The notes under the pieces were generated by a model. It made no database searches. It was not told the origin of the DNA and saw only the letters and a list, made by a program, of their open reading frames with translations. A stretch of DNA of 64,000 nucleotides, from NCBI GenBank assembly GCA_017461745.1, contig JAFTXE010000059.1, forward strand, positions 7,304-71,303, in the 5' to 3' direction. The position numbers were made by a program, and so were the translations under genes. This stretch comes from Clostridia bacterium (lineage in GTDB: Bacteria; Bacillota; Clostridia; Oscillospirales; CAG-272). Below are positions 41,091-64,000 of the stretch, piece after piece (the stretch's first letter is position 1; each line of letters opens with the position of its first letter).

Positions 41091-41342
41091 ATGTCTAACA
41101 AGAACGTAGTACCTGAGGCTAAGGAAGCTCTTAACAAGTTTAAGATGCAGGCTGCAAGCGAGGTCGGTGTTAACCTCAAGAACGGTTACAACGGCGACCT
41201 CACCTCTAAGCAGGCAGGAAGTGTCGGCGGTCAGATGGTCAACAATATGAACCCCGTACGAACTATGAAATTCGACCGCCCAAGCCGTGTAGCTAAGGGG
41301 CATATGGTAAGCGTGCGGTACATATTTTCGTTAACAGTGTGA
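41091..41342 (+). pseudogene. Alpha/beta small acid-soluble spore protein gene with the conserved C-terminus replaced after codon 50
   Basis: RBS aggag. Codons 1-50 are canonical (VPEAKEALNKFKM..ASEVGV..GYNGDLTSKQAGSVGGQMV); the next 33 aa are unrelated to SASP. Confidence 0.8.
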
Positions 41343-42577: not shown

Positions 42578-42717
42578 ATTGCGTTCTCCTTCCAAAACAA
42601 TTTAATCTCTGAAACACAAATCGCTCGTATGAACCTTGTCTATATATTCACTATACTATGTATTGGTGAACTTGGTATGTATATTTCGTTTTTCGTACAA
42701 ACATGCTCGTTATTTGA

Positions 42718-43802: not shown

Positions 43803-44894
43803 TTACGCCTCTAAAATATCTGCAATTCTCTTGCAAGCCAAACCGTCGCCGTAAGGATTACTTGCCTTCGACATTGCTTCATAAGCAATCTGATCTTCAA
43901 GAAGCAATTTGAAATTTTCATAAATAATCCGCTCGTCAGTACCGACTAATTTCAGTGTTCCTGCCTTGATGCCTTCTGGACGTTCCGTTGTATCACGCAT
44001 AACAAGGACAGGCTTGCCCAAGGACGGAGCTTCTTCCTGAATCCCTCCGCTATCTGTCAAGATCATAAAGCTACGAGATAGGAAGTTATGGAAATCCAAA
44101 ACTTCAAGAGGTTCAATGATATGGATGCGATCACAATCACCAAGTTCCGCATCAGCAGCTTGGCGTACAACAGGGTTCATGTGTATGGGATAGATCGCCT
44201 TTACATCGGGATGCTCGTCCATAACACGGCGGATTGCACGGAACATATTGTGCATAGGTTCACCAAGATTCTCACGACGATGTGCCGTAATCATAATCAA
44301 ACGGCTATCTTTCGCCCATTCCAATTCCGGATGCGTGTAATCATCACGCACGGTTGTTTTTAGTGCGTCAATTGCCGTGTTACCGGTGATATAGATGCTA
44401 CTCTCATCCTTGCCCTCTTTCACAAGGTTTGCTTTTGAAAGCTCGGTAGGAGCAAAATTGTACTTGGATATAATAGAAACTGCTTGACGGTTAAATTCTT
44501 CCGGATAAGGACTGTAAATATTGTATGTACGAAGTCCTGCTTCCACATGACCGATTGCGATCTGCTTGTAGAAGCACGCAAGAGCCGTCACAAAGGTGGT
44601 AGATGTATCACCATGAACGAGAACCACATCGGGTTTTACTTCATCGAGTACATCTCCAATTCTATTTAAGATGTTTGTTGTGATGTCAAACAAAGTCTGT
44701 CCGGCTTTCATTATGGAAAGATCATAATCCGGTACAACATTGAATGTATCAAGTACCATGTCAAGCATCTGACGATGCTGACCTGTTACGCATACAACTG
44801 TCTTGATATTTTTTCTGGATTTCAACTCATTCACGAGCGGACACATTTTGATTGCTTCGGGACGTGTTCCAAAGACGAGCATTATTGTTTTCAT
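43803..44894 (-). CDS. wecB: UDP-N-acetylglucosamine 2-epimerase (non-hydrolysing)
   Basis: VFGTRPEAIKMCP, TGQHRQM, HGDTSTT, HVEAGLRT, TAHRREN, TDSGGIQEEAP, NPYGDG. Confidence 0.97.
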   Translation of the reverse strand: MKTIMLVFGTRPEAIKMCPLVNELKSRKNIKTVVCVTGQHRQMLDMVLDTFNVVPDYDLSIMKAGQTLFDITTNILNRIGDVLDEVKPDVVLVHGDTSTTFVTALACFYKQIAIGHVEAGLRTYNIYSPYPEEFNRQAVSIISKYNFAPTELSKANLVKEGKDESSIYITGNTAIDALKTTVRDDYTHPELEWAKDSRLIMITAHRRENLGEPMHNMFRAIRRVMDEHPDVKAIYPIHMNPVVRQAADAELGDCDRIHIIEPLEVLDFHNFLSRSFMILTDSGGIQEEAPSLGKPVLVMRDTTERPEGIKAGTLKLVGTDERIIYENFKLLLEDQIAYEAMSKASNPYGDGLACKRIADILEA

Positions 44895-45547
44895 TTGATT
44901 TCTTCTCCAATCGTATTATTGCTATTAAGGAATTGTATATAATCAATCTCATCCATATATCGTTTTGTAGAAAATAGGTGTTTATATTTAAAAACTTTAC
45001 CGTTTTTATAATTCTTATCAAAAATATTATGTGTTACAATGTTGTTATCATTACTCGGATTCTCATTAGTAACCAATAATTTGTTTGGGTAAGGTATTTT
45101 TTGGAACTTTTGAATATATTCATCAGATATTTGTGCAATGTTTAAAATTATATAGAGATTAGAATAATCTATTCTTTTTTTCCTTTCATTCCATTTTTCT
45201 TTTGCTATATGAAAGTCGGTATAGTGCATAAACTTAATGTATACATCTTCACCGTTATACGATATTTTCCCAACTGGGAAATCATACCCCGAATTCTGTA
45301 TCTCCACAACATCTGATTCCATATATTCCGGCAAATTCATTACCATTTTAATAAAATCATCTACAGAAAAAAACAAATTTATTGTGGGCGAGTTGAACTT
45401 TAATCCCATGTCATGATAAATAAATGTGCCAAAACAGTTGCTCGAAATGATAGTAGGGTTCAAATTAAGTAAGGATTTACTTTTTTTCTTGTGATATAAT
45501 GTTCCAGGCAATTGGATGATTTGCTTAATCAATAACGGTATCTGCAT
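44891..45547 (-). CDS. DUF1919 domain protein (polysaccharide-locus associated)
   Basis: TIISSNCFG, YHDMGLKFNSPTINLF, FPVG, IKFMHY, KWNERKKRI. RBS ggagg. Confidence 0.75.
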   Translation of the reverse strand: MQIPLLIKQIIQLPGTLYHKKKSKSLLNLNPTIISSNCFGTFIYHDMGLKFNSPTINLFFSVDDFIKMVMNLPEYMESDVVEIQNSGYDFPVGKISYNGEDVYIKFMHYTDFHIAKEKWNERKKRIDYSNLYIILNIAQISDEYIQKFQKIPYPNKLLVTNENPSNDNNIVTHNIFDKNYKNGKVFKYKHLFSTKRYMDEIDYIQFLNSNNTIGEEIK

Positions 45548-45630
45548 AGCTTCCTCCATAGGGCTAAATATCTTTTATACTAAAATATATTCTTTTCCGA
45601 TTATATTCTTTATTATTATATACAATCAAA

Positions 45631-47082
45631 CTAATTATTTCTTTTACTTTTTATTATATTATATAATAAAGTTTTCATATTGGCAAAAACACTATTTCTA
45701 GTTACAACAGATAATAGTATATAAATAACGCCACCCGAAACGACTTGAACAATCAACTTGATAAAATCATTGACGGGAATATAGTTCATCATATAAACAC
45801 AGCAAAACATAATGCATGATATGATAACGCTGGGGATAATATCCTGCATTTGTTCACGCAATGAATACCCCAACAATTTCACATTAGGATATGCATTAAC
45901 AAATGTAAATAGCGTTGTACATATCGCCATACCAATTACAATAGCTTCTACACTAATCCACATTGCAATCAACAAAACAATTAATTCAATAATCTTTTTG
46001 AATACTTCTAGTTTTAAATATATATCGCTTCGCCCCATAGCTTTTATAGCTTGAATATTTGCTACATGCATTGGTTGAAATAAATATATTACACAAAATA
46101 GTTGAAGCAACGGAACACAATCTATCCATTTATCTGTAAGCAAAAGTCTAACAAAGGGAATGGCAACAGCTGCCAAACCAAGCATAACCGGGCACATAAT
46201 ATAGGAACTAAACCTAATTGAATTACGTGTTGTCTCTTTTAGCTTTGTTATATCATCCTGCTCATCTGCCATTTTGGGAAACAATACAGAACTTATTGAG
46301 GTATTAATATTTGTTACAATTAAATTAGGAAACTGTCTTCCTTTATCATAATATGCTAAATCAGATGACGAATAAACTTTACCAATAATAAGTGCCCTCA
46401 ACTCTTGGTACCCTGTCATTAGCATTCCTGTTCCTAAAATCCTAATACCATATGGGAAAAGTTGTCTTAAAGAAGATATGGAAAAACAGATTTGAGGCTT
46501 CTTTTTTATGACAACCATCAAACTGAAAGTACTAACCGTTGTACTAACCAAGTATTGTGTAACCAACGCCCAAACGCCGTATCCAAGGTAAGCCATCGCA
46601 ATTCCAATGACCGCAGATGATATTGTTCCCCATAGTGTAGCGAAGAAAAACTTTTGGAACATCATTTTCTTTGAAATGTATGCTTGCTGTACAGAATTAA
46701 TTGCCGTAAAAACAATTCTTATCCCAAGCACACGCAAAATTGGAGTTAATATTTCATACCCTTCACCATAAAACACAGAAATATACGGAGCTGAAATATA
46801 TATAATCAAATACAGCAACAAAGAAAAACCGATATTGAAATACAGAACAGAAAAGAAATCTAATGCGGTAGCACCCTTCTTTTGAATCAATGCACTTCCG
46901 AAACCATCGCTAACAAAAACATTAGCCAACGTTATGAATATCATAACAATTGAAACAACACCATAATCCTCCGGAGATAATAATCGTGCAAGAATTATTG
47001 ACACAATCATTGATATAAGTTGAGCAGAAATTCTTTCCCCAAATTTCCAAGCTAAATTCGTTATTAAACTGTTTTTTTTCAT
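45631..47082 (-). CDS. wzx: Wzx-type flippase
   Basis: 483 aa multi-TM protein. ILARLLSPEDYG, DGFGSALIQKK, LIIGKVYS, FPKMA. Confidence 0.9.
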   Translation of the reverse strand: MKKNSLITNLAWKFGERISAQLISMIVSIILARLLSPEDYGVVSIVMIFITLANVFVSDGFGSALIQKKGATALDFFSVLYFNIGFSLLLYLIIYISAPYISVFYGEGYEILTPILRVLGIRIVFTAINSVQQAYISKKMMFQKFFFATLWGTISSAVIGIAMAYLGYGVWALVTQYLVSTTVSTFSLMVVIKKKPQICFSISSLRQLFPYGIRILGTGMLMTGYQELRALIIGKVYSSSDLAYYDKGRQFPNLIVTNINTSISSVLFPKMADEQDDITKLKETTRNSIRFSSYIMCPVMLGLAAVAIPFVRLLLTDKWIDCVPLLQLFCVIYLFQPMHVANIQAIKAMGRSDIYLKLEVFKKIIELIVLLIAMWISVEAIVIGMAICTTLFTFVNAYPNVKLLGYSLREQMQDIIPSVIISCIMFCCVYMMNYIPVNDFIKLIVQVVSGGVIYILLSVVTRNSVFANMKTLLYNIIKSKRNN

Positions 47083-47128: not shown

Positions 47129-48331
47129 CTATTTGCTGTGTTTTTTTTGAACAAAACGAATCAATTGTCTTCTTATTATGTTAGGAAGTAAACACCATAT
47201 CTTACCTTTCCAGGAAAGTTTGTATTCAGATGCTTCACAGCACCATTTTGAAATTGCTCCTTTTTCGTTGCTAATAAAATCCGCGAAAAAATCATCTCTA
47301 TTATGAGCAATCCATGTTTGCCTATAGAACAATGGATTATGTTCCTTAATATCATCAATCGTGCATGAATACATAACCATGTTCTTTTTCAGTTGTTCCA
47401 ACAACAGATTTCCTTTTTCTGTGTGGATAATAATAGAAGAAAAATTGCGTTTTGAAAGATACAATTTGGGAAATACCTTACTTACCCCCTTAAAGTCAGC
47501 AATCGTAATATCACTTACTCTGTTTTCAATTCGGAAATGACAATTTCCGCCACAAGAAGGTCTTAAACTAAGTTGCTTCAAAAACAATTGCATATATGGG
47601 TCATTTTGAACTAATAATTTATTACCATTGTCACTCGTGATTTTTTGAAGATGGTCTGTTTCATAAACTCGTCCTTTTGCTCGAAATTCATAACCGACAA
47701 TATTATTTTCAAACTGTTTCGAAAGGCTATTTACACAAGCTTCAAACACTTTTTGACTACCAACACCATGGCAGATTAAGTCAATCAGTAATAAATTTTT
47801 ATCTTGATTTCCAATATATCGCTTTAAACCAGCAACTTGACAAGGGGTTCCACAAAAAACAACTTTTTTTCCACCTTTTAAATACTGCTGAATTTCTGCA
47901 AATACATTCTCCGGATTGCTCGCAACATATTTAGACTTGCATAATGCAGCGATATTACGAACGCCTTTTACGCAAACATGATGTACTCGCAAACCATCCC
48001 AAGCAGCTCCACATATGATTGTTTCGTCATCTCCGAAAGCTTTACAAATTTCAGAAAATGCACCACCGCTGGCACTACGTTTCCAAATACGATATTTTTT
48101 GGTAACCGCACACCAAGCAGACTTTTGAAAAGCCATCCCCCCTTCTTCTACATTAGGAGTAGCTATTGGACAAATTCTTTTGCATTTTTCACAATGAATG
48201 CATTTTGGGGATGCGGTAGGGTATAAAAAGCCTTCTTCATCAGGCTCCATTTTAATACACTGAACAGGACAAGCAGCGTAACACGCAGAACACCCCATAC
48301 AATTAGATTTTTCTTTTGTAAAATCTAACAT
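47129..48331 (-). CDS. FrhB-like (F420 hydrogenase beta family) Fe-S protein, copy 1
   Basis: CMGCSACYAACP, CIHCEKCKRICP, SASGGAF, KSKYV, GTPCQ, LICHG, SDITIADF. Confidence 0.85.
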   Translation of the reverse strand: MLDFTKEKSNCMGCSACYAACPVQCIKMEPDEEGFLYPTASPKCIHCEKCKRICPIATPNVEEGGMAFQKSAWCAVTKKYRIWKRSASGGAFSEICKAFGDDETIICGAAWDGLRVHHVCVKGVRNIAALCKSKYVASNPENVFAEIQQYLKGGKKVVFCGTPCQVAGLKRYIGNQDKNLLLIDLICHGVGSQKVFEACVNSLSKQFENNIVGYEFRAKGRVYETDHLQKITSDNGNKLLVQNDPYMQLFLKQLSLRPSCGGNCHFRIENRVSDITIADFKGVSKVFPKLYLSKRNFSSIIIHTEKGNLLLEQLKKNMVMYSCTIDDIKEHNPLFYRQTWIAHNRDDFFADFISNEKGAISKWCCEASEYKLSWKGKIWCLLPNIIRRQLIRFVQKKHSK

Positions 48332-48333
48332 TT

Positions 48334-49413
48334 TTATAACAACGCCCTTTCTAAGTAGCTATGCGAAAGAATTCTAGCATCCTCTAATTTTTTTTCAATG
48401 TCGTGATAATCGATTCTCTTACATTCGTCTATCAATTTATGCTTGTTTAAAAATCTATCGCTAATATTAAACCATCTGTCCAACTGATAAATTCTTGAGT
48501 TCTGATTTATTGGGTCATCTATACCGAAGCGTTCAAAAGTAAAAAATTCTTTCTCAAATAATAAAGAAAAAATCGTTCCATGATAAGAATCTGTGAATAC
48601 AACTTCTGCATGATGGATAAGCCACAAAAATTCCAAAGGACCCATGCCGTCTAACGTTTCAATCCAGTCACTATCAGCTGGATTAACAGAAACACCCACA
48701 ACCTTCAATTTATGCTCCATCGCATATTGATATATTTGTTCTCTATAATCGTGATTTTTATTTAAAAAGTAACAGAATATATACTTTCCCACAAAACCCG
48801 TAGGTTTATTCTCCATCTTTTCATAATGTTCCTTGGACAAAAGAAGAGTTGGATCCAAAACTACAGTTGATTCAATATTGAAATTATCCTTTAACAATAC
48901 TTTTCCTGCTTCTTCTCTAATCGAAATATAATCAAAATCACACAAACAACTTTTATAGGAATCATGTAGATGCTCTGGGATTTTTTCCAATCCAATACTT
49001 GGTGCATACGCCACTTTTCTCACTTTTTTATTATCTATAAAGTCCAACATGTAAGAAGTATCTAATACATTAGGTGCCCATATTTGGTCACTACCGCAAA
49101 CGATAATATCAAATTTGCAATTTAGACCACTAAGTTCTGACTTAGGGACAAATTCTGTTAAATTTAAATATTTTCTATCAAACCTGAGATAATGATACCT
49201 TCTTGTAGGAAGAAAGTTATATGGGAAAATTTGCATTATCCTGCCAATCATACATTTGAGTCCGTCAAACTCGCTAACATCATTATTGTTAGTCTTATAA
49301 TTGATAATTTTTACATCATCACAATATTGGGTTAAAATTGTACTAATAGCATATGCCTGCAAGGAACCACCCAAATTATGGTGATGATGCCAAGTAATAA
49401 CGCCTGCTTTCAA
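48334..49413 (-). CDS. Polysaccharide pyruvyl transferase family protein, copy 1
   Basis: NLGGSLQAYA, CGSDQIW, AYAPSIG, ISIREE, LDPTLL, TDSYHGTIFS. Confidence 0.88.
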   Translation of the reverse strand: MKAGVITWHHHHNLGGSLQAYAISTILTQYCDDVKIINYKTNNNDVSEFDGLKCMIGRIMQIFPYNFLPTRRYHYLRFDRKYLNLTEFVPKSELSGLNCKFDIIVCGSDQIWAPNVLDTSYMLDFIDNKKVRKVAYAPSIGLEKIPEHLHDSYKSCLCDFDYISIREEAGKVLLKDNFNIESTVVLDPTLLLSKEHYEKMENKPTGFVGKYIFCYFLNKNHDYREQIYQYAMEHKLKVVGVSVNPADSDWIETLDGMGPLEFLWLIHHAEVVFTDSYHGTIFSLLFEKEFFTFERFGIDDPINQNSRIYQLDRWFNISDRFLNKHKLIDECKRIDYHDIEKKLEDARILSHSYLERALL

Positions 49414-49471: not shown

Positions 49472-50596
49472 TTATAACATTAATATTTCCTCGATTGCTT
49501 TAATCCATTGCTTTTTCCATCGTTCATGAGAAAATGAACAATTTACAGTTTTATATGCATTATTAGCAATATTTCGTCTATATTCTGGCTTATCAATCAA
49601 TTCGCTTATAGCTTCATTTAATTCTTCTACTTCTGCCGAACGAACCATTATACCGTTATATCCATTTAGAATGATATTGGTCATACCGCCGACATCTGTA
49701 CAAACCGGTGCGCAACCTGATGCCATAGCTTCTAACAAAGAAAGTGAAGTCCCTTCCGACCCGATTGTTGGCACTACAGCAATATCTTTGTCTGAGTGTA
49801 TTGCATAGCTCTCATCTGCTTCATACTTTATAAAACTTACATTAGCAAATCTTTTCAACCTATCTTTCATCCAAATTTCGTCAGGACCTTCTCCTGCGAT
49901 AGTAATTTCGATATTCGGATATTTACACAATAGTTTCTCGGCAACTGCAGTAAATACTTTTGTCCCTCTATATTCTTGAAGACGTCGTGCAAATAAGATC
50001 CTCACAATTTCACCATCGCTTTTTCGGGGGAACGGCACTGTTTTTGCAAAGTTTGGTATGCAAACATATTTTGTCCCAATACTATGGGTTTGCGTTCTAA
50101 ACCAATTCATATAGTTATAGTCAACGCATACAAGGTAATCAATCATAGATAGAATTTTCTGTTCGGCATATGAGTCTCTTGCTTTATTAATTGTGTTTTT
50201 AAGCATTTCTAACCTACTCAATTGACCCTTTGAGACAATATCTCTACCTATACCATGTTGAATAGAAACAGCTACGTTTTTGTATTTTTGTATAATGAGG
50301 TTTTCTGTTGCGTACAAAATAATGTCATTCTCTTGCAGCATACTCTCTAATTTTTTGTTTAGTTTGACAACCTTTTTTTCGGGAGTAAGCTTGTCGACAT
50401 TAACGCCAACAACCTTAGTACCATTAAATACAACTTCTTTATCTTCCTTAGAGTACTGTATAATAATTGGCAATAATTCACATTGTTTAATGACACTCAC
50501 CAAATTATGCAAATATGTTTCAATGCCGCCAATATTCAATTTTGACATTGAATCGGCATCCAAAAATAATCTTGCTAAAATAATCACTCGTCTCAT
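49472..50596 (-). CDS. GT4 family glycosyltransferase
   Basis: ILFARRL, IAGEGP, SEGTSLSLLEAMASG, TDVGG. Confidence 0.88.
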   Translation of the reverse strand: MRRVIILARLFLDADSMSKLNIGGIETYLHNLVSVIKQCELLPIIIQYSKEDKEVVFNGTKVVGVNVDKLTPEKKVVKLNKKLESMLQENDIILYATENLIIQKYKNVAVSIQHGIGRDIVSKGQLSRLEMLKNTINKARDSYAEQKILSMIDYLVCVDYNYMNWFRTQTHSIGTKYVCIPNFAKTVPFPRKSDGEIVRILFARRLQEYRGTKVFTAVAEKLLCKYPNIEITIAGEGPDEIWMKDRLKRFANVSFIKYEADESYAIHSDKDIAVVPTIGSEGTSLSLLEAMASGCAPVCTDVGGMTNIILNGYNGIMVRSAEVEELNEAISELIDKPEYRRNIANNAYKTVNCSFSHERWKKQWIKAIEEILML

Positions 50597-50630: not shown

Positions 50631-51626
50631 TCAACCTTTTCGCTTCGTATACCAGTAGATAAACCTCCATAGTTCCCACTGAATGAGCTTGTACTTGAAT
50701 TTTGTTGAAGATGATTTTAGGTTTCTATAAAAATTAACTCGTTTGTATTTTTTGTCAAATTGTAGATATTCGCGAATCAAACTAATAAATTCTGTATAAC
50801 TTTGAGATTGTAAGGCAAAATCGTGTGTGAGTACCCAAATTGAGGAAATATAGTAATGAGCTATATTCTCCAAGGGGTAAATGCCAATGTTTTCAATTTC
50901 ACTTTTAACATTCGTGACATTCACTAGGTCATAGGGCTTTCTCACATGTGTCATCGATTCGATATTTTCCCTATAAAAGTAACCAGAATAGTGAATAACA
51001 CTAACATTTTGTGTTTCATTTAAAATTAGAGCTGTTAAAAGTACATCTTCTCCGTTTTTAATTGTATTTGGTACTAACTTTTGGCTTTTTATATATATTT
51101 CGCGTTTTACTGCTTTGGACCATATCGAGTATAGTAAGCAACCAGAATTATCTGAAGCAGACGATGCATTGTAAAAATAATTAGAACTAATTTCTGCAAT
51201 ATTGGTATATATACCAACCTTTAAAGGTGGAAGTACCGGTTCAGATTGTTTTATGCCATAATCAACCGTGTATCCATAGCATATCATATCAACCTGAGGA
51301 TTGCGTTCAACTTCAGCGTTCAATTTGCTAAATAAATCTACATTTAGATGATCATCCCCGTCTAAACACACGATAAATTCACCTCTAGCAACAGCCGCAC
51401 CTGCCTTGCGCGCACTAACTAAACCACCATTGGGTTTATCAACAACAATAATACGATTTGGATATGCACTTTCATATTTTCTGCATATTGATAACGAATC
51501 GTCTTTTGACCCATCATTTACTAGAATCAATTCATAATCCGTGAAGCTTTGATTAAGTACCGATTCTATACATTCTGTCAAATAAACAGAAACATTATAA
51601 ATCGGGACAACAACTGAAAATTTCAT
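50631..51626 (-). CDS. GT2 family glycosyltransferase
   Basis: SVVVPIYNV, VNDGSKD, NGGLVSARKAG, CLDGDD, GEDVL. Confidence 0.9.
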   Translation of the reverse strand: MKFSVVVPIYNVSVYLTECIESVLNQSFTDYELILVNDGSKDDSLSICRKYESAYPNRIIVVDKPNGGLVSARKAGAAVARGEFIVCLDGDDHLNVDLFSKLNAEVERNPQVDMICYGYTVDYGIKQSEPVLPPLKVGIYTNIAEISSNYFYNASSASDNSGCLLYSIWSKAVKREIYIKSQKLVPNTIKNGEDVLLTALILNETQNVSVIHYSGYFYRENIESMTHVRKPYDLVNVTNVKSEIENIGIYPLENIAHYYISSIWVLTHDFALQSQSYTEFISLIREYLQFDKKYKRVNFYRNLKSSSTKFKYKLIQWELWRFIYWYTKRKG

Positions 51627-52780
51627 TACACATACACTCCCAACTTACGCAGAATAAAAGCCTTCCAATGCTTTTGAGAAAATTGTTTCTGCATGTATTC
51701 AGCACCATACATTTTCCACTCCGTTAACACATCATAGTCCATTTTATTTTTATCAAACGGCTGTTTTAGTTGCTCATTAGTTTTGGCTACGCTTTCAAAA
51801 TTACTTTTGCTGACATCAAGGAGTTCACATGCTAAATCGAAAAGCTTCTTCCCTTTTACGGTCTGAATCAAGATTGCTGAAATCCCCTTATCTTTGGGCA
51901 AACTTCCCTCATATCCCCAAAAATCTCCTATAGTTAAATCGGATTGACGTACCGATTTTGCAAACATACAAGAATAACAATTCTCCCTGAAAATTTTACC
52001 AGAAAGGAAATGATTATAATAATATGACAACGAAGGCGTTGTATAATATCGTTTTTCTTTTACTGTCCCATTTTTTAAAGTATATCTAGCAGTATATCTA
52101 GCAGTAAAAGAACGCTTTTTATCTTTGTTTCTAAAGGAAAAGTCTGTAATTGTGCAGTTGTGTTTCGTCTGCAATAATTGAATATAATCACGCCAATAAG
52201 GCTGTTCAATAACACCGTGGCAAATAACCTCCACGGTATATAGCAAATCGCAGTTTTTTTCACCAACAAACTGTTTGAGAGCAGCACATTGGCAAGGTGT
52301 CCCAGAAAATAACACTGGAACTCTATTTTTTAAATCATTTTGAACACAGCAAAAAACTTCTGGTTGGATTGAACTTTTAATATACTTTGATCCTTGTAGC
52401 CTGTGCAATTCACCCAAAGCATTTACTCGAATATGTGTCGGCATCATTTCGCTATTATATGTACATCCATAAACAACTCCATGTAATCGATTGATAAACG
52501 ATTCAGCCAAAGCGGAAAAAGCCCCTCCAGATGCACTTTTCATATGCGTATCTCTATTTTTTACAATTCCAGCATATACTTGGTCAACATTGCTAAAAGA
52601 AATATTCTGTTCATATATACAAACCTTATTACACTTGCCGCAGTCTATACACTTACTTGTATCAACCCTAGGGAACAGATTCCCGTACTCATCCTCAATT
52701 TTATAAATTGCTTTAGTGGGACAAGCGGCTTCACAGGCAAAACATCCACAGCATTTTTCTTTGTTCAGTATATTAATCAT
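51626..52780 (-). CDS. FrhB-like Fe-S protein, copy 2
   Basis: CCGCFACEAACP, CIDCGKCNKVC, SASGGAF, GSKYI, GTPCQ, VICHG, SDLTIGDFWG. Confidence 0.85.
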   Translation of the reverse strand: MINILNKEKCCGCFACEAACPTKAIYKIEDEYGNLFPRVDTSKCIDCGKCNKVCIYEQNISFSNVDQVYAGIVKNRDTHMKSASGGAFSALAESFINRLHGVVYGCTYNSEMMPTHIRVNALGELHRLQGSKYIKSSIQPEVFCCVQNDLKNRVPVLFSGTPCQCAALKQFVGEKNCDLLYTVEVICHGVIEQPYWRDYIQLLQTKHNCTITDFSFRNKDKKRSFTARYTARYTLKNGTVKEKRYYTTPSLSYYYNHFLSGKIFRENCYSCMFAKSVRQSDLTIGDFWGYEGSLPKDKGISAILIQTVKGKKLFDLACELLDVSKSNFESVAKTNEQLKQPFDKNKMDYDVLTEWKMYGAEYMQKQFSQKHWKAFILRKLGVYV

Positions 52781-53843
52781 TCTTCAAATTTTCCTTTAGA
52801 TACTCAATTGTACGCGCCTGTTCTTTGGCAATTTGTTGATTGGCATAGTCGAAACTGATTTTGGAATCAAAAATTTCGCCTATTTGATTTACTTTCTGCA
52901 ATTGTCTGCTCTCTAAGCCAAAAAAATTCAGCAAAGCTATGAGTTTATTTTTATTGGAGTCGCGTATAATTGTTACAAATTGTTTGTTTCGTTTGATAGA
53001 AATTACAGTACCATGAAATGTATCTGTAATTACATAATCCGCATGATCAAAATACGATAATAATTCAAAAGGTTCGCACAAAATATTTTTATCGCACCAT
53101 CTCTGATATACGCCGCAGCTAATTAGTGTTTTTCCTTCTCTCTTAGCAAACTCTTTAATCGCCCTAATTTCCTGTTCGTTATTGATTCTATTATCGTATG
53201 AATAAATAAGAATATAATTCTTAGGATAAGTATCAATATCTTTTACATTCGACCAATCGTAAACCAATACGGGATCCAAATGTACGAATGGCTTAATACC
53301 AGTAAGTTGTTCAATACAATCAAAAGAGTTTTTATCTCTAACAGAAATACTCTTTAATTTTTTTAAAGACTTTGCAACGTTCTCCGTCAAATGATATTGT
53401 TTTAAATTATCATAAGATGTGTGTCCAAAGGAACCAGCATATGAAATTGCTGGAACCATTGTATCGCCGAACAACTGTAATGAACACCCCCACGAGGATT
53501 CCTGGCAACAGTTAAACACTTCATCCGAGCCTATGATAATCATATCAACTTCTGTTTCATCAACAGGATGCGATATACCAATATCATTGAACATCTTTTG
53601 GGTAAATAATAAACATCTATTTTTTTCAAATACCACATGTTCAATTCTTTTGATAATATGCTTCCATGGCTTTTGCTTAATCAAGCTTTGGGAAAGTGTA
53701 TCAAAGTTTAACTTTTCACCATTTCTTATATCAACAAAAAATGCTTCGTGTCCCAACCCCTCAACAAGAGATTTGAGTGCATATGCTTGTAAAAAAGAGC
53801 CATAATTAATCACGCGTTGCATTGATAAAATTCCGATTCTCAT
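52773..53843 (-). CDS. Polysaccharide pyruvyl transferase family protein, copy 2
   Basis: NYGSFLQAYA, IGSDEVFN, SYAGSFG, SISVRD, LDPVL, TDTFHGTV. Start placed at MRIGIL after gggagagg. Confidence 0.88.
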   Translation of the reverse strand: MRIGILSMQRVINYGSFLQAYALKSLVEGLGHEAFFVDIRNGEKLNFDTLSQSLIKQKPWKHIIKRIEHVVFEKNRCLLFTQKMFNDIGISHPVDETEVDMIIIGSDEVFNCCQESSWGCSLQLFGDTMVPAISYAGSFGHTSYDNLKQYHLTENVAKSLKKLKSISVRDKNSFDCIEQLTGIKPFVHLDPVLVYDWSNVKDIDTYPKNYILIYSYDNRINNEQEIRAIKEFAKREGKTLISCGVYQRWCDKNILCEPFELLSYFDHADYVITDTFHGTVISIKRNKQFVTIIRDSNKNKLIALLNFFGLESRQLQKVNQIGEIFDSKISFDYANQQIAKEQARTIEYLKENLKND

Positions 53844-53916
53844 CAAACCTCTCCCTTTATTTACCATTTTGTCATAAAAATTGCAACTATGTATATCATA
53901 TTAAGCAAATCATTTT

Positions 53917-55164
53917 CTATATAAATAGTAAACCAAACCAGTATTGGGCACTAAATGTAGATACCGTAGTGGCACCGATTATTAGTATCAATTTGATTAT
54001 TAGCATAACTTTAAAATTATTGGTTTTATAATACTTTTTTAACCGCTTTAACTGTACATAAAACATCGCGAATAAACCTAAAACTCCGCTATAAATTAAA
54101 ATGTCAAGATATGAATTATGTGAATACTTGCCAACTAATTCGTCATATCCGAGCCAGGCTTTACCAAATACTTTTTGAATAAGATTTCCGTCTTTGAACA
54201 TAGCAACATACGCATTTGTTAATTCTGTTCGTCCTGTTGTAGCATCATTCAAATCACCATATTTTATCGAATTAACCATTGAATCTACCCTCAGCATTAT
54301 TGGTTCCATAAACGAAATGTTCGACAATTGCGAAGCAATTATTATAATGACACATATGGCACAAAAAACGGTTATAACGCCTTTGAGCGTTACTCTTTTC
54401 AAATTAATATTTGAAAGAATATAATATCCTATTACGCCAATATATAAAACTACCGCAGTTAAACTAACAGAAAGCAATACAATAATAGAAATTATAGCAA
54501 ATACAACCCATTTACTTATATTCTTTTTCATAAAATATAGTGGATAAAGTAATGCTATACATCCGTATAATGAAAATCTGCTTGTTCCAAGTGTTCCATA
54601 CAACTGTTTCACATAACCAAATCCAGGTATCCATCTTAAAATAGAAGTACCTTCACAATATCCATAAATTGTTCCCTCTATAAAACCTATAAGTATCATC
54701 AACAATATTGTTTTTAAAAATGCTTCTCCTTCCTCACTAGTACTGGATATCAGTTTGTGAAAGATAATGCAAGAAGCGTAAAAGTATACACAAATGCTAA
54801 CTCCCGTTAATGTTCCATACAGAAGAAAGTTAGACATTCCTATAACTAAAAATAATAAAAGGAAGAAGATTTCATATGCATTTAAGGACACTTTTTTGCA
54901 AAAAAACGTGTATTTCACAACAAATAATACACTTATTATCAAAGATAATGTAATTCCAAAAGAAAAAACCGCTTCTAAACACCAAACAAAAGAGAATATA
55001 TACATCATTAATGTTTGATTGATTGGGGCAATACAAAAAATACCGATTGCAAACAAAAGAATTATATCGTCCGGTACAATTCTCAACGCAAAAACAAAAA
55101 ATAAAATTACAAAGCCATATAAAAAACCATATGTTTTTTTTGTTTTTTCAACCATACAACTCAC
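53917..55164 (-). CDS. wzy: Wzy-type polysaccharide polymerase (O-antigen ligase-like)
   Basis: About 11 TM segments, TTGRT and SHNSYLDIL motifs, very AT-rich. Confidence 0.7.
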   Translation of the reverse strand: MSCMVEKTKKTYGFLYGFVILFFVFALRIVPDDIILLFAIGIFCIAPINQTLMMYIFSFVWCLEAVFSFGITLSLIISVLFVVKYTFFCKKVSLNAYEIFFLLLFLVIGMSNFLLYGTLTGVSICVYFYASCIIFHKLISSTSEEGEAFLKTILLMILIGFIEGTIYGYCEGTSILRWIPGFGYVKQLYGTLGTSRFSLYGCIALLYPLYFMKKNISKWVVFAIISIIVLLSVSLTAVVLYIGVIGYYILSNINLKRVTLKGVITVFCAICVIIIIASQLSNISFMEPIMLRVDSMVNSIKYGDLNDATTGRTELTNAYVAMFKDGNLIQKVFGKAWLGYDELVGKYSHNSYLDILIYSGVLGLFAMFYVQLKRLKKYYKTNNFKVMLIIKLILIIGATTVSTFSAQYWFGLLFI

Positions 55165-56099
55165 TTTCCTTTGCGTTTTCTAACAATCATATACAACCTT
55201 GGTGATATCATGAACAATAAACATCTCATCTTGTTGTAAAATGTTTTGGATGTCTTTATTAATAAATCTTTATCGATGTAATCTTTGTAGTTTTCTCTTT
55301 TATACTGAAAAATATCAGTTTCATAAAATTGGCTAAGATACCCATTACATATTTCATTTTTCAAAATATCTCTTGTACACTTGTTTTTAAGACTGTTTGA
55401 ATAGTGCAACAAACTATAACTAATATCTATAATATCCTTCAAATTTTTTCTTTTATCTTTGTGCGTAGTTATTGAATCTTCTCGAACATATCGTACATAA
55501 AAATCTATATTTGAAAACACAATACTATTAGCCTCTATATATGCTCGAGGAGTAAACTCATTATCTTCATGGAATTTGCCAACCATAAAATTCAAACCAC
55601 ATTCACGCAAGAAATTTCTTCTATACGCTGGAGCAACTGCACAAGCCAATATGCTATCAATAAAAAGTGTATAGTATTCTTCCCCTCTATAGATCTTCCC
55701 TGGTATTGCTGCAGGAGTCAACGAAAATCTACTACAATCCTCGTTAATTAGACAACCTATGCAAATATCAACTAAATTTACGGTAAGTACTTCATTAAAA
55801 CGTTCGCAAGCATCCAATAATAACCAATCATCCGAATCAACAAATAAAACATATTCGCCAGTAGCAATTTCAAGACCTACATTTCTAGCATCTGACAAGC
55901 CTCCGTTTTCTTTGTGAACCACTTTAATTCTGCTGTCTTTTTTTACAAAATCATCACACAATTTGGGAGAGTTATCCTTGCTTCCATCATCCACCAAAAT
56001 AATTTCTATATTGTTATATGTTTGATTTATTAATGATTCAACGCATCGTTCAAGATAGGCTTCAACATTATAAACAGGTACGATTATTGAAAACTTCAT
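55161..56099 (-). CDS. GT2 family glycosyltransferase
   Basis: SIIVPVYNV, VDDGSKD, NGGLSDARN, FVDSDD, FHEDN. Confidence 0.92.
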   Translation of the reverse strand: MKFSIIVPVYNVEAYLERCVESLINQTYNNIEIILVDDGSKDNSPKLCDDFVKKDSRIKVVHKENGGLSDARNVGLEIATGEYVLFVDSDDWLLLDACERFNEVLTVNLVDICIGCLINEDCSRFSLTPAAIPGKIYRGEEYYTLFIDSILACAVAPAYRRNFLRECGLNFMVGKFHEDNEFTPRAYIEANSIVFSNIDFYVRYVREDSITTHKDKRKNLKDIIDISYSLLHYSNSLKNKCTRDILKNEICNGYLSQFYETDIFQYKRENYKDYIDKDLLIKTSKTFYNKMRCLLFMISPRLYMIVRKRKGK

Positions 56100-56128: not shown

Positions 56129-56902
56129 CTATGCCTCATTCATTATGGTATAAATATGCGAAAAGCTACCCATATTTCGATACATATCATAGTGGCGGAA
56201 CAAATGACAAAGTATAGCCAGTTTATACCACTTAGGGAATAAAGTTTTATACAGAACACCTTGGTCAACAATTGATTTTTCAGTAACTCCATGATACCAA
56301 GTAGATTCCCGGTGTGTGACCTCTCCTATAGTTTCGCTTGACAAATAGATGTTCAGTCCTTTACGATAACAATCATAAAGGAAAATTGTATCTTCACCAT
56401 GGGAATACATTGCCCCGCCGCCAAACAGTAGAGAAAATGACAATCTGTTTCTTAATAAAGACATTCTTCTTGCTGTAATAGCGTATGTTCCGAATTTAGA
56501 TAGATCTCTAAAAGAGGCTTTTCCATTTTTTACATTAATATCTTTGAAAGATTCTTCTCCCCGGCGCTCTTTAAAGTTAAAAATTACAACATCTGCTTTT
56601 TTATTTTTTTTGTAATAATCTTCTATGATTTTAGAGTAACCCTTTTTATAAACGACATCATTATCAGCAAACACGACTACATCTGCATCTGATGAAAACA
56701 ATGACACGTTTCGATTGAGACCTACGCCCCTATCACTTCTGGATAGTATTTTAACCTTGTGTTTTTTGTGAACGAACATTTCTTCAGATATCGAATCTGT
56801 TTGATTTCCAATTATCATATCCGTTTCTAAATTCATATTCTCAAGATAATCGCTTTTCTCTCTTTCAAAAAACATAGTTGACATAAGTACTTCAATTTTC
56901 AT
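56129..56902 (-). CDS. GT-A fold glycosyltransferase
   Basis: IEVLMST, RGVGLNRN, FADND, FGGGAMYSHGED. Confidence 0.8.
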   Translation of the reverse strand: MKIEVLMSTMFFEREKSDYLENMNLETDMIIGNQTDSISEEMFVHKKHKVKILSRSDRGVGLNRNVSLFSSDADVVVFADNDVVYKKGYSKIIEDYYKKNKKADVVIFNFKERRGEESFKDINVKNGKASFRDLSKFGTYAITARRMSLLRNRLSFSLLFGGGAMYSHGEDTIFLYDCYRKGLNIYLSSETIGEVTHRESTWYHGVTEKSIVDQGVLYKTLFPKWYKLAILCHLFRHYDMYRNMGSFSHIYTIMNEA

Positions 56903-57911
56903 TTTTATCTTCCTTTCCATGAAAAATTGTTAAGGCATTATGCATTAAACCTTTTAGAGTACCTATCCCATAACTAATATGTAAAATAAAAAATAAGAAT
57001 GGCATACAAATTGAGTATAAATTACCATTGCCTTTAATCACCGTTAATAAAGCGCTCACCAACGTAAACAATCCATACGATGCCCACATAAGTGCTGAAA
57101 GTTGCCACATATCCAATAATGCTAGTAAACTTGTCACTACTATACCAAGTACAAAAGCCAAAGGCACTAAATGATATATCGAGATGCAACCGGGACAAAT
57201 CCCCAAAGTCAACCCAATCCAATAACCATTTCCATATTTCTGTTTTACCATTCTTGTCAAACTGCTTCTTGCATATTGAAAAGAAACGATCTCAGGATCA
57301 AAACACAGCTTATAACCCGATTTTCTAATACGATAATGCATTTCATTATCTTCAGTTCTAAGCAGATTTTCATTAAACAAACCAGCTTTTTCGAAAACTT
57401 CTCGTCTGTATGCTGCGTGAAACATAGATTTTACATACTGCTTTTCTTTACCATGTCGGCTAATCGCGATGCTACTTCCAAACAAAGAATTTTCTACTTC
57501 GAGTAAAGTGTTTTTCCATGCTGTTGGTTCCTCTATCACACACGGACGAACTCCACCAGTCACATACTCTCCACTCTCTTGAAGTTCCATATTCTTTTCT
57601 GTAAACTCTGCCGGAATATGCGTATGAGCATCAATTCGGATAATGACATCACCAATGGCATTGTTTATAGCAACGTTCCAACCCGCTGCCTGAATTTTCT
57701 TTGGGTTGTCCAACACTTTTACAGTCATAAAAGACACATTGCTTTTTTTGAAATCGTCCATTATCTCACGAGTTTTGTCAGTAGAACGCCCATCAACCAG
57801 CACAATCTCTGTTAACTCATGCGGATACGTTTGATTCGATAAATCCTTTAACAATTTTGGAAGAAACGATTCTTCGTTATAAGCAACTACACAAAGCGAT
57901 ACTGTCATCAT
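56892..57911 (-). CDS. GT2 glycosyltransferase resembling pneumococcal TacB
   Basis: VAYNEE, RIDAH, FGSSIA, RTEDNEMHYRIR, QKYGNGYWIGLT. Resemblance is recalled from memory, not searched. Confidence 0.8.
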   Translation of the reverse strand: MMTVSLCVVAYNEESFLPKLLKDLSNQTYPHELTEIVLVDGRSTDKTREIMDDFKKSNVSFMTVKVLDNPKKIQAAGWNVAINNAIGDVIIRIDAHTHIPAEFTEKNMELQESGEYVTGGVRPCVIEEPTAWKNTLLEVENSLFGSSIAISRHGKEKQYVKSMFHAAYRREVFEKAGLFNENLLRTEDNEMHYRIRKSGYKLCFDPEIVSFQYARSSLTRMVKQKYGNGYWIGLTLGICPGCISIYHLVPLAFVLGIVVTSLLALLDMWQLSALMWASYGLFTLVSALLTVIKGNGNLYSICMPFLFFILHISYGIGTLKGLMHNALTIFHGKEDKNEN

Positions 57912-58645
57912 ATCTCAATTTCCTCCTTTTCTGTGACGACCTCATAATCGCCCTTATATTCCTTCCCAAGCACTGCAAATACCGTCATGAACATAACATT
58001 TATATCGCTCCAAAAGCTGAACTGCTCCATTCCTTTCAGGTTATAATACATCTTGCCGGGGAGTATTTTTTCAATATAAACCTTGTCAGTATCCTCTACG
58101 CCGTCAAGCAATTCCGCTTCATCCTTATAGTAAACACTTGCAAGGCTAGTAATGCCCGCAGGAAGAAGCAACGTCGCCATCATTTCTGTTGTATACTGCT
58201 CTGTATATTTCGGTACCTCGGGACGTGTCCCTACAAACGTCATTTTTCCTCTAAATACATCAATGAGCTGACTTATCTCATCGAGACGACATTTACGAAC
58301 AAGCTTTCCGACACGAGTAACTCTCGCATCACCGCTAACCGTAACTTGCGAGCCCTTATCTGCATTCTGCACCATAGAACGAAACTTAAAAATCTTAAAT
58401 TTTTTATTATATTGCGTTACTCTAACTTGTCGATAAAACACTGGACCCTTGCTATCAATCTTAATTGCTATAGCTAAAATCAAGAACACGGGAGACAATA
58501 CAATGAGCATCACAGCAGATGCAAAAATATCAAATACTCTCTTAAAAAACAAACTTACCTTCTTTTTTTTCAGAATATCGTAATACTTTCTTACCTCTTC
58601 GGTTTGCATCTCCTTGGGAAGCTGCTCCCATTTTTTTAACATCAT
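57908..58645 (-). CDS. Priming phosphoglycosyltransferase (TacA/WcfS-like)
   Basis: KRVFDI, GPVFYRQVRV, KFRSM, RLDEISQL, FVGTRPEV, AGITSLA. Confidence 0.9.
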   Translation of the reverse strand: MMLKKWEQLPKEMQTEEVRKYYDILKKKKVSLFFKRVFDIFASAVMLIVLSPVFLILAIAIKIDSKGPVFYRQVRVTQYNKKFKIFKFRSMVQNADKGSQVTVSGDARVTRVGKLVRKCRLDEISQLIDVFRGKMTFVGTRPEVPKYTEQYTTEMMATLLLPAGITSLASVYYKDEAELLDGVEDTDKVYIEKILPGKMYYNLKGMEQFSFWSDINVMFMTVFAVLGKEYKGDYEVVTEKEEIEI

Positions 58646-59847
58646 CTTATGTACTCCTTGACGATTTTCGCGTAATTATCAATTACATAATCAACTTCCT
58701 CATCCGTCAGACAGGTATGTAATGGCAAAGTAATCTCATTTACAAAATGATTATACGAATTAGGATAATCAGCGATATCAAATCCCAAATTCTTATAAGC
58801 CGTGTGCATAGGCAACGGCTTATAATGCACATTGCAAGCTACGCCACGTTCTGCCATCTTGATAATGCTCTCGTTCCGCTGCTCAAGAGTAATGTTAGGA
58901 ATCCGTGTCAAATACAGATGACCAGAAGATTCCCATTCATCGGTATAATGGTCAAGTGTTTCAATGTCAAGCGGCTTGAGTGCGGCATCGTACTTCTCAA
59001 TAATTTCTTTTCTGCGTTTCAACATATCGGGGTATCGCTCAAACTGTTTAAGTCCGATTGCTGCCGCAATATCAGTCATATTGCACTTATAATATGTACC
59101 TACAATATCGTACTCCCATGCACCCAATTGAGTCTTTGCCAAAGCATCCTTTGACTGACCGTGCAGGCTGAGCAGTTGGAGCTTCTTATAAATATCTTCG
59201 TTGCTGATACCAGGAATTGTTCTCCATGTAAGAGCACCGCCTTCTGCTGTTGTGAAATTCTTTACAGCATGGAAACTAAAGCTGGAAAAATCAGCAACAG
59301 AGCCAATCATCTTACCATGGTATTTTGCGCCGAAAGCATGAGCAGTGTCTGCCATAACTGCCACTCTACCGAGCGCAGATTGAATTTCATTGTTTGGCTT
59401 AAACAGATTTTTCTTGCGTTCTACAATTTCAAAAATTCTGTCGTAGTCACAAGGAATACCCGCAAGATCAACGGGAATAATTGCTTTTGTCTTTTCGTTG
59501 ATTGCAGCTTCAAGGGCATCGTAGTCCATTTCAAGACTATTTTTTTGTGTATCAATCAATACGATTTTTGCCCCTACATGAGCAATTACGGATGCTGATG
59601 CTGTGTAGGTGTATGCGCAAGTAATAACCTCATCACCTGCCCCAATACCCATGACGTGAAGCGCCATTTCAGCACATGCGGTTTGAGAATTCAGACATAC
59701 ACATTTTTCTGTGCCTACCCACTCCGCTATTTTTCTTTCTAACTCTTTTGTTCTCGGACCTGTAGTAATCCAACCAGATTGCAAAGCACTTACAACTTCT
59801 TCAATTTCCAATGATGAAATATCAGGTGGTGAAAATGGTATTTTCAT
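58642..59847 (-). CDS. DegT/DnrJ sugar aminotransferase (AatB/WcfR-like)
   Basis: IPFSPPDI, SGWITTGP, FSFHAVKNFTTAEGG (PLP Lys), HGQSKDALAK, WEYDI, YKCNMTD, EITLPLH. Confidence 0.92.
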   Translation of the reverse strand: MKIPFSPPDISSLEIEEVVSALQSGWITTGPRTKELERKIAEWVGTEKCVCLNSQTACAEMALHVMGIGAGDEVITCAYTYTASASVIAHVGAKIVLIDTQKNSLEMDYDALEAAINEKTKAIIPVDLAGIPCDYDRIFEIVERKKNLFKPNNEIQSALGRVAVMADTAHAFGAKYHGKMIGSVADFSSFSFHAVKNFTTAEGGALTWRTIPGISNEDIYKKLQLLSLHGQSKDALAKTQLGAWEYDIVGTYYKCNMTDIAAAIGLKQFERYPDMLKRRKEIIEKYDAALKPLDIETLDHYTDEWESSGHLYLTRIPNITLEQRNESIIKMAERGVACNVHYKPLPMHTAYKNLGFDIADYPNSYNHFVNEITLPLHTCLTDEEVDYVIDNYAKIVKEYIR

Positions 59848-60001
59848 AACAACAACCTTTCTGCGCTATTCGTTCTAAGCATTATGCAAGGTTAATCTAT
59901 CTGTACATTGCATATCTTTTCACGCAACAAAACTTATTTTTGCAAAGTCATCAATTAAAATACACATATTACAGATACAAATGCATATTAAAAACCAATT
60001 T

Positions 60002-60030
60002 ATTATATCACAAAACACTTTAAAAGTCAA
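60002..60030 (-). promoter_or_regulatory. Sigma-A promoter of the polysaccharide operon
   Basis: Minus strand TTGACT-17-TATAAT with TGa extension, about 150 nt upstream of the aminotransferase. Confidence 0.75.
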
Positions 60031-63744: not shown

Positions 63745-63999
63745 CTACATTTTGCCGAGATACTCCGACAGATCGGGCTTGATACCGCTTTTTGCGGAGT
63801 CTATCTCAAGCCCCGTCAGAATTGCGAGCGTTTCGGTCTCCTGTCTGCATTTTTCCTTTGTCTCTGCGTCGGCGTTCTCGTCGTAGGCGATGATACTGCG
63901 GTCAAGCGCCGCGTTGGATATCTGACCTACACGGGATGAAAAGGTGTTTCGGATCGCCTCAAAGCGAGCGTACCAATCGTTTGCGTTATGGATCAGTGG
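63745..63999 (-). CDS. Hypothetical protein, 5'-partial (continues off the window)
   Basis: Open minus frame PLIHNANDWYARFEAIRNTFSSRVGQ...KPDLSEYLGKM* ending at 63745. Confidence 0.65.
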   Translation of the reverse strand, partial: PLIHNANDWYARFEAIRNTFSSRVGQISNAALDRSIIAYDENADAETKEKCRQETETLAILTGLEIDSAKSGIKPDLSEYLGKM

Positions 64000-64000
64000 C

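Follow-up and report, generated by a model that had tools for sequence, protein, structure and literature searches.

Which sugar begins the polymer encoded by a polysaccharide operon of a Clostridia bacterium (Oscillospirales, CAG-272), and does the finished chain carry charges of both signs? The operon lies in the 64,000-nucleotide stretch of DNA that was analyzed (the window; assembly GCA_017461745.1, contig JAFTXE010000059.1, positions 7,304 to 71,303) and comprises 17 genes over roughly 18.5 kb, running on the minus strand from window position 59847 down to 41420. A first-pass annotation of the window had predicted a probably zwitterionic polymer started with 2-acetamido-4-amino-2,4,6-trideoxygalactose (AATGal), and at the sequence level this reading is supported by the aminotransferase, the phosphoglycosyl transferase (PGT), the dehydratase and the lack of a capping enzyme. 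We consider it very likely that synthesis is initiated with a 4-amino-4,6-dideoxy-N-acetylhexosamine as such, and probable that the locus makes an AATGal-initiated polymer with both charges.

Three open reading frames (ORFs) stand at the head of the operon, all on the minus strand and at the positions first given for them. These are a DegT aminotransferase of the Spr1654/AatB type (58642 to 59847; 401 aa; DegT_DnrJ_EryC1, PF01041, E 5.9e-90), a small monotopic PGT of the TacA/Spr1655 type (57908 to 58645; 245 aa; Bac_transf, PF02397, E 6.3e-55) and a family 2 glycosyltransferase (GT2) with a C-terminal membrane region (56892 to 57911; 339 aa; Glycos_transf_2, PF00535, E 7.2e-25). The aminotransferase and PGT genes overlap by 4 nt, as do the PGT and GT2 genes. 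Upstream of the aminotransferase gene is a gap of roughly 390 nt, and a terminator ends the preceding AbiH-like gene; a promoter-like site (60002 to 60030, minus strand; TTGACT, 17 nt, TG-TATAAT) located ~155 nt 5' of the aminotransferase gene is the best sigma-70 consensus match between 41000 and 60400 (11 of 12 positions, with an extended -10). Thus the trio does head an operon, as had been proposed. The 150-nt leader yielded nothing significant, either in Rfam (best E 0.019, far under the gathering score) or in folding (z-score -1.3). Every motif that had been quoted for the three proteins is present: IPFSPPDI (residue 3), HGQSKDALAK (229) and WEYDI (244) in the aminotransferase, MLKKWEQLPKEMQ (residue 2) and YTTEMMATLLL (151) in the PGT, and FGSSIA (residue 144), RTEDNEMHYRIR (185) and QKYGNGYWIGLT (224) in the GT2. 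The sole deviation is in MLKKWEQLPKEMQ, which has one K more than the quoted pattern.

The aminotransferase points to the initiating sugar. Its top PDB match is Spr1654 (6EWJ/6EWQ/6EWR; E 7.8e-161, 538.7 bits), and the alignment with 6EWJ runs without a gap over residues 2 to 395, with 233 of 394 positions identical (59%), which bears out the proposed closeness to AatB. The 6EWJ protein is S. pneumoniae Spr1654, an essential aminotransferase assigned to the synthesis of uridine diphosphate (UDP)-AATGal for teichoic acid (PMC5936713). All 12 of the cofactor and substrate residues that were checked are identical in the window protein; as named for Spr1654, they are Lys199, Asp170, His196, Ser194, Thr59, Glu205, Gly206, Lys257, Gln234, Lys236, Lys241 and Asn342, and the catalytic pair corresponds to Lys196 and Asp167 in the window aminotransferase. 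Two insertions (150-164 and 212-217) are said to be unique to Spr1654 among its kind (PMC5936713), and the alignment is gapless through both, so that they are kept in the window protein. Other sugar aminotransferases in the PDB score far lower: 210 and 180 bits for ArnB-like structures, 148 for perosamine synthase, 129 for PseC, 114 for WecE, 101 for WbpE, and 73 and 70 for the C. jejuni entries 1O61 and 4ZTC, which we take to be the bacillosamine enzyme PglE. The first-pass annotation had named membership of a bacillosamine or other clade as one outcome that would speak against its prediction; the protein instead scores 539 bits with Spr1654 versus 210 or less with the others. No NCBIfam equivalog was found for it, the best being PseC at 289 bits versus a cut-off of 423, and curated models therefore cannot name this enzyme. 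Based on its likeness to Spr1654, the aminotransferase is predicted to convert UDP-4-keto-6-deoxy-N-acetylglucosamine to UDP-AATGal.

The pneumococcal counterpart of the PGT was reached through a sequence search with Spr1654, which led to an S. pneumoniae contig (locus L085) where a 230-aa Bac_transf gene lies directly before the aminotransferase gene (L085 5266-7227). The window PGT matches this protein over its full length (227 aa) with 57% identity and 76% positives (E 1e-93), and the match takes in both the N-terminal KWE.LP.EM and the Y..EMMATLLL motifs; the asserted closeness to pneumococcal TacA is upheld, and for the aminotransferase and the PGT alike the resemblance exceeds chance by a wide margin. 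PF02397 spans residues 35-226, residues 30-66 form the only hydrophobic segment, and the LDE dyad (121-123) aligns with LDELPQL of WbaP, while PglC reaches only 77 bits. In a measured panel of substrates, UDP-FucNAc4N (that is, UDP-AATGal) is the cognate substrate of the small PGT of S. pneumoniae type IV lipoteichoic acid (LTA-IV) (PMC11257628). WcfS and a Fusobacterium enzyme use UDP-FucNAc4N too, but they belong to another similarity cluster of small PGTs (PMC11257628). By every sequence-level measure the window aminotransferase and PGT are of the pneumococcal types, and the PGT is predicted to form undecaprenyl pyrophosphate-linked AATGal (Und-PP-AATGal). The pair is also conserved. Relatives of the aminotransferase were found in more than 580 stretches of species-representative genomes, and in the best 80 of these, which have 77-90% aminotransferase identity and to which all of our counts of related loci refer, 52 keep a TacA-type PGT (57-83% identical) directly after the aminotransferase. 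In most of the remaining loci, roughly a third of the 80, another small PGT (about 30-35% identical) lies near the aminotransferase (among them L007, L008, L010, L013, L016, L024 and L026). Two kinds of PGT accompanying this aminotransferase echo the two UDP-FucNAc4N-using PGT clusters of PMC11257628.

The third gene of the trio encodes a GT2 with hydrophobic segments at residues 236-292 and 298-319, which is predicted to act as the second-step transferase on Und-PP-AATGal. We tentatively place it right after the PGT in the pathway on the indirect evidence of the 4-nt overlap between their genes, their proximity in related loci and a natural fusion. Of the 80 related loci, 20 have a GT2 of the same family downstream, mostly straight after the PGT (30-34% identical, with 70% in L057). 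The fusion is a 584-aa metagenomic protein (P0396) in which a TacA-type PGT (51% identical) is joined to a GT2 sharing 47% identity with that of the window. A second PGT-GT2 fusion (P0434) carries a PGT of a different type, 28% identical, and about a dozen relatives of roughly 700 aa contain two tandem copies of the window-type GT2. In the pneumococcal/mitis group, the alleles of the enzyme for the corresponding step add either glucose (Glc) or galactose (Gal), and because they switch between the two sugars, Glc cannot be inferred as the second sugar here.

The retaining 4,6-dehydratase that would feed this pathway is encoded outside the operon. The host genome assembly (2.54 Mb in 138 contigs, 90% complete) contains one strong Polysacc_synt_2 protein (668 aa; PF02719, 389 bits), which is membrane-bound and whose gene, on contig C64, has only housekeeping genes around it. 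The best PDB match of this protein is C. jejuni WlaL/PglF (5BJU, 283 bits), versus 123 bits for the PseB-type 2GN4 and 111 for CapE, both inverting dehydratases. The dehydratase gene is likewise unlinked in B. fragilis (ungD2; PMC13063421) and in the pneumococcus (spr0092; PMC5936713). Elsewhere the host genome carries a Wzz-family gene and a LytR-CpsA-Psr (LCP) ligase gene.

The 14 genes that follow the trio, all on the minus strand, resemble those of a Wzx/Wzy-type polysaccharide locus. Four encode further glycosyltransferases: a GT2-like protein (56129 to 56920; 263 aa; PF00535, weak, at the cut-off), two GT2 enzymes (55161 to 56099, 312 aa, PF00535, E 3.9e-40; and 50631 to 51626, 331 aa, PF00535, E 1.6e-30) and a GT1/GT4-type enzyme (49472 to 50596; 374 aa; PF00534, E 2.2e-27). 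A polytopic protein of the O-antigen-ligase family with many hydrophobic segments (53917 to 55164; 415 aa; PF04932, Wzy_C) is the candidate Wzy-type polymerase, and a Wzx flippase is encoded at 45631 to 47082 (483 aa; PF13440, E 9.5e-90). A UDP-N-acetylglucosamine (UDP-GlcNAc) 2-epimerase (43803 to 44894; 363 aa; PF02350, E 1.8e-118) would supply N-acetylmannosamine (ManNAc). The acid groups expected by the first-pass annotation have a putative source, at the level of family assignment, in two polysaccharide pyruvyltransferase-family proteins (52773 to 53867, PF04230, E 1.5e-26; and 48334 to 49413, PF04230, E 3.1e-36), each paired with an FrhB/FdhB-like 2x[4Fe-4S] protein (51626 to 52780 and 47129 to 48331, respectively; both PF04432 plus Fer4 families). 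The remaining genes encode a DUF1919 protein (44891 to 45559; 222 aa; PF08942, E 5.1e-52), an APH-family kinase (42718 to 43731; 337 aa; PF01636) and an NTP_transf_5 nucleotidyltransferase-family protein (41420 to 42595; 391 aa; PF14907). The 17 ORFs are closely spaced and none of them is broken, no strong internal terminator was seen within the operon, and the G+C content between 44 and 59 kb is 30-35% compared with 44-48% in the flanks. The earlier statement that the locus lacks an N-acetyltransferase also stands, as family searches detected no acetyl- or acyltransferase family among the 17 genes.

Taken together, these genes suggest a route in which the PglF-type dehydratase would convert UDP-GlcNAc to UDP-2-acetamido-2,6-dideoxy-xylo-hexos-4-ulose, and the Spr1654-type aminotransferase, using glutamate and pyridoxal phosphate (PLP), would place an amine onto C4 to give UDP-AATGal (FucNAc4N). 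The small monotopic PGT would transfer AATGal-1-phosphate onto undecaprenyl phosphate, the membrane GT2 would add the second sugar, and the four additional glycosyltransferases would lengthen the unit, which would probably become a hexasaccharide with ManNAc among its sugars. The two pyruvyltransferase-family enzymes, each with its FrhB-like iron-sulfur partner, would add carboxylates, after which Wzx would flip the unit and Wzy would polymerize it. The dehydratase, the LCP ligase and the regulator of chain length would be supplied by the host genome. Since no enzyme that would acylate the C4 amine is seen, a repeat with a single positive charge and at most two carboxylates, hence two negative charges, is a reasonable prediction. 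What the sequences establish directly is the homologies, the order of the genes, the limits of the insert described below and the recurrence of the locus in other samples and in metatranscriptome contigs; the C4 stereochemistry, the free amine, the pyruvylation, the size of the polymer and its charge are what we infer from this gene set. Immunomodulatory activity of the polymer is likewise a prediction.

Several points weigh against a zwitterionic, AATGal-initiated polymer, and they are taken here together with the explanations that they would favor. The likeness of the GT2 to S. pneumoniae TacB/Spr0091 is a proposal of the first-pass annotation, and none of 20 relatives of the GT2 looked up by name (picked by motif, length and composition from 150 representatives) is streptococcal. 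The FrhB-like proteins may act on the pyruvyl groups in some way; ketal pyruvylation itself is not known to require a redox partner. The DUF1919, APH-family and NTP_transf_5 proteins might modify the sugar. Literature searches on DUF1919 and on the pyruvyltransferase/FrhB-like pairs returned nothing on function, and the sole PDB relative of the DUF1919 protein is the uncharacterized 2G6T.

The explanation that survives best among the alternatives is that the same pathway operates to a non-zwitterionic end, with either the C4 epimer made and N-acylated or the AATGal amine capped by an acetyl, formyl, alanyl or similar group, leaving a plain anionic pyruvylated polysaccharide. For Spr1654, the published work comprises amino-donor half-reactions and a docking model and did not yield the sugar product in vitro (PMC5936713). 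Because that product has never been directly shown, the axial (galacto) amine is inferred from the structure of pneumococcal teichoic acid, and at 59% identity the stereochemistry at C4 may have changed. The pneumococcal LTA-IV PGT also tolerates UDP-bacillosamine (UDP-Bac), the C4 epimer, less well than its cognate substrate (PMC11257628). Even so, the validated PGT relatives use a sugar with a free C4 amine, and with this pair of enzymes the amine stays free in polysaccharide A (PSA) of B. fragilis and in pneumococcal teichoic acid. The candidates for a capping activity are the DUF1919 protein, which like the APH-family and NTP_transf_5 proteins has no assigned role, a host acyltransferase, or a gene absent from the assembly; as the genome is incomplete and spread over 138 contigs, an acyltransferase could be missing from it. 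No acyltransferase family is represented among the 17 operon genes, however, and genome-wide no protein of the PglD/NeuD type exceeds the cut-off of 160.8 bits, the best being a generic hexapeptide-type match on contig C29 at 61.6 bits. We regard an acylated or capped product as unlikely. The predicted charge is independent of C4 stereochemistry and hinges on the absence of an unrecognized N-acylating enzyme.

It is also conceivable that the locus makes a short glycan for attachment to a protein (as in O-glycosylation of an S-layer protein, pilin or flagellin) or to a wall acceptor, with the Wzy_C protein acting as a ligase or O-oligosaccharyltransferase. PF04932 spans Wzy polymerases, WaaL ligases and PglL-type O-oligosaccharyltransferases, and the score of the 415-aa protein (33.8 bits) is barely above the Pfam cut-off of 31.7. 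Neither a chain-length regulator nor an LCP ligase is encoded in the locus, but a host Wzz-family gene and LCP ligase are present elsewhere. The operon includes no gene for a target protein, and the combination of Wzx, one polytopic Wzy_C protein and five glycosyltransferases is the standard Wzx/Wzy layout, PSA included. A short protein- or wall-linked glycan thus appears very unlikely, and a polymer initiated with AATGal and bearing both charges continues to be the preferred reading.

The locus has been recovered more than once. Several gut metagenomes, produced by different studies, contain the trio in nearly identical form, and in an independent DNA sample the greater part of the locus is present with >99.8% identity. 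Contigs in two metatranscriptomes of the bovine gut match the aminotransferase 5' end and leader, the PGT and the GT2 with a single mismatch per region; the first of these regions, covered at 59573-59960, takes in 113 nt of the leader. Because such contigs can contain DNA, they are weak evidence of expression, a reservation that applies to the proposed polymer as well. That the operon is silent or decaying cargo yielding no polymer in this host, as its foreign-looking G+C content (30-35% versus 44-48% in the flanks) and its need for unlinked host genes might suggest, is hardly credible given 17 intact, packed ORFs behind a near-consensus promoter, the near-identical pieces in two bovine gut metatranscriptomes and the retention of the locus at >99.8% identity in an independent sample.

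A comparison of the window locus with the two best-known AATGal systems shows both shared features and significant disparities. Type IV teichoic acid of S. pneumoniae starts with the Spr0092 dehydratase, the Spr1654/AatB aminotransferase, the Spr1655/TacA PGT and the Spr0091/TacB glycosyltransferase for the second sugar. Both systems have adjacent aminotransferase (59% identical) and PGT (57%) genes, an unlinked dehydratase of the PglF/CapD type and a GT2 with membrane segments predicted to act second. The order of the pair differs, with the aminotransferase gene first in the window and in all 52 of the Clostridia loci that have a TacA-type PGT, and the PGT gene first in the pneumococcus. Unlike in the pneumococcus, the GT2 gene is inside the same operon in the window. 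The window locus also lacks ribitol-phosphate, LicD and choline genes and instead has Wzy, five glycosyltransferases and two pyruvyltransferases, which indicates a heteropolysaccharide rather than a teichoic acid. Moreover, the pneumococcal genes are essential, whereas the window locus is accessory and mobile.

In B. fragilis, the PSA (capsular polysaccharide A, CPSA) locus includes UngD2, WcfR, WcfS, WcfQ, WcfO, WcfP, WcfN, WcfM, Wzx and Wzy. Its logic is that of an unlinked dehydratase, an aminotransferase, an AATGal-1-phosphate PGT, glycosyltransferases, a phosphoenolpyruvate (PEP)-dependent pyruvyltransferase and Wzx/Wzy (PMC13063421). The window operon is comparable to PSA at the level of this pathway logic and in the predicted combination of a free amine with pyruvate carboxylate. 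Six transferases are present in the window locus compared with four for PSA, suggesting a larger repeat. The window operon further departs from PSA in having two genes for pyruvyltransferases, both accompanied by one for an FrhB-like iron-sulfur protein, in possessing a gene for ManNAc supply and no galactofuranose (Galf) mutase, and in residing in a Gram-positive-type host. Pneumococcal Sp1 has a zwitterionic motif like that predicted for the window polymer.

Prediction of zwitterionic capsules from AATGal genes is an established approach, and the kind of locus described here is known and common in gut Clostridia. As outlined in PMC10167101, the wcfR-based screen of Neff et al. (2016) covered ~8000 mostly cultured genomes and identified putative AATGal zwitterionic polysaccharide (ZPS) operons in hundreds of them. 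Our reasoning resembles that screen, as it is described there, in predicting a zwitterionic capsule in a gut commensal from an AATGal-synthase ortholog and its polysaccharide neighbors; our case differs in that it concerns an operon on a mobilizable element in an uncultured ruminant-gut Clostridia metagenome-assembled genome (MAG). A structure has been solved for none of these screen-type AATGal-ZPS predictions, the window locus included. Because the same inference was published in 2016, going by that outline, and the polymer has no known structure or activity, the concept itself is unchanged. What is added here is that the operon sits on a mobile element, that the cassette is broadly distributed in gut Clostridia and that a PGT-GT2 fusion ties the second step to the first.

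Among bacterial sugars that act on T cells, the best studied are zwitterionic AATGal polysaccharides such as PSA of B. fragilis and Sp1 of the pneumococcus, and predicted relatives of these have been pursued mostly in Bacteroides. The window locus suggests that AATGal chemistry can also travel on a mobilizable element, and it offers a small set of genes open to testing (the aminotransferase, PGT and GT2 genes together with the host dehydratase or PglF) that fits the published E. coli reconstitution system for PSA (PMC13063421).

This chemistry is probably widespread in uncultured gut Firmicutes, as roughly one species in eight of the order has the aminotransferase-PGT cassette, which stands at the head of otherwise variable loci. 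In an evenly drawn, order-wide sample of 301 genomes, a Spr1654-type aminotransferase (called at E 1e-120 or better) was present in 36 (about 12%), distributed over 27 of 153 genera. Only two other genomes of the same family carry it, so that its distribution is patchy. Nearly all of the best 80 related loci are in gut or rumen Clostridia MAGs.

The suggestion that the operon is possibly on a mobile element is confirmed by the boundaries of an insert. A 28,964-bp segment, extending from after base 41240 to window-equivalent position 70204 (contig C31 77507), splits a gene for an alpha/beta small acid-soluble spore protein (SASP), the 5' part of which lies at 41091 to 41240 on the plus strand. 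The left 22.8 kb of the insert (41241 to 64000) is in the window and the remainder lies beyond it, including a MobA/VirD2 relaxase gene (66559-68169; 536 aa; PF03432) and a large serine recombinase gene (window-equivalent 68528-70258; 576 aa; PF00239, PF07508 and PF13408). The SASP frame departs from the family sequence past base 41240, the recombinase ORF runs into the missing SASP 3' end, and joining base 41240 to 70205 restores an intact 67-aa SASP. The joined flanks were matched in 20 of 30 related genomes, and the best of these matches (e.g., G004, G022 and G005) cross the junction unbroken, and their protein products share 81-83% identity with the joined SASP. Carried on the insert are the polysaccharide operon in full, the operon whose last gene is AbiH-like, and the relaxase gene. 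By its sequence features, then, the operon is the cargo of a 28,964-bp integrative mobilizable element. Neither its recombinase nor its relaxase was found in the flanks of any of the 80 related loci, and the element is therefore one vehicle for the cassette and not the usual one.

Sporulation genes are known to host intervening elements that are excised during sporulation, such as skin in sigK and SPbeta in spsM. The present insert is similar in having a large serine recombinase at one end and in splitting a sporulation-related gene that is intact in relatives, and it differs in its cargo of a polysaccharide operon, a defense-like operon and a relaxase. A fuller scenario would have the element deliver a complete zwitterionic PSA-like capsule operon and a defense operon with AbiH and an RNA-dependent RNA polymerase (RdRP) domain by splitting the SASP gene, with recombinase-driven excision during sporulation; taken as a whole we find this distinctly doubtful. 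If it were true, excision during sporulation would couple the capsule genes and the protection of spore DNA in a reciprocal switch, and ZPS-type capsules would be horizontally exchangeable among ruminant-gut Clostridia.

The candidate defense operon consists of four genes. The first is a 707-aa ORF on the minus strand, at 63745-64000 of the window and beyond (C31 71048-73171), with a match to the Pfam family RdRP (PF05183, 53.6 bits, residues 553-699), which represents the eukaryotic-type RNA-dependent RNA polymerase; two unknown proteins (293 and 300 aa) and the terminal AbiH-like gene follow. This set looks like an undescribed defense operon on the same element.

Some additional observations were made on the operon and its host. 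The pyruvyltransferase-FrhB-like gene pair occurs twice in the operon in diverged form (the pyruvyltransferases are 23% and the FrhB-like proteins 32% identical), and the pairing was found again in several related loci. Homologs of the NTP_transf_5 and APH-family genes lie directly 5' of the aminotransferase in other loci (L049 6613-7782, L074 6655-7788 and L060 6840-7823), showing that these genes travel with AATGal-type loci. The only other PGT in the genome (contig C125) was considered as part of a rival pathway and rejected, as it is 29% identical and alone among unrelated genes. A rival 4-amino-sugar pathway was likewise considered for the one further DegT gene of the genome, whose two parts lie at separate contig ends (C10:1-705 and C12:2-658), and was rejected, the gene being RfbH/E1-dehydrase-like with 26% identity. 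This DegT gene adjoins a gene for a thiamine-diphosphate enzyme, which hints at a second glycan locus, for a 3,6-dideoxy or branched sugar, that was broken by the assembly.

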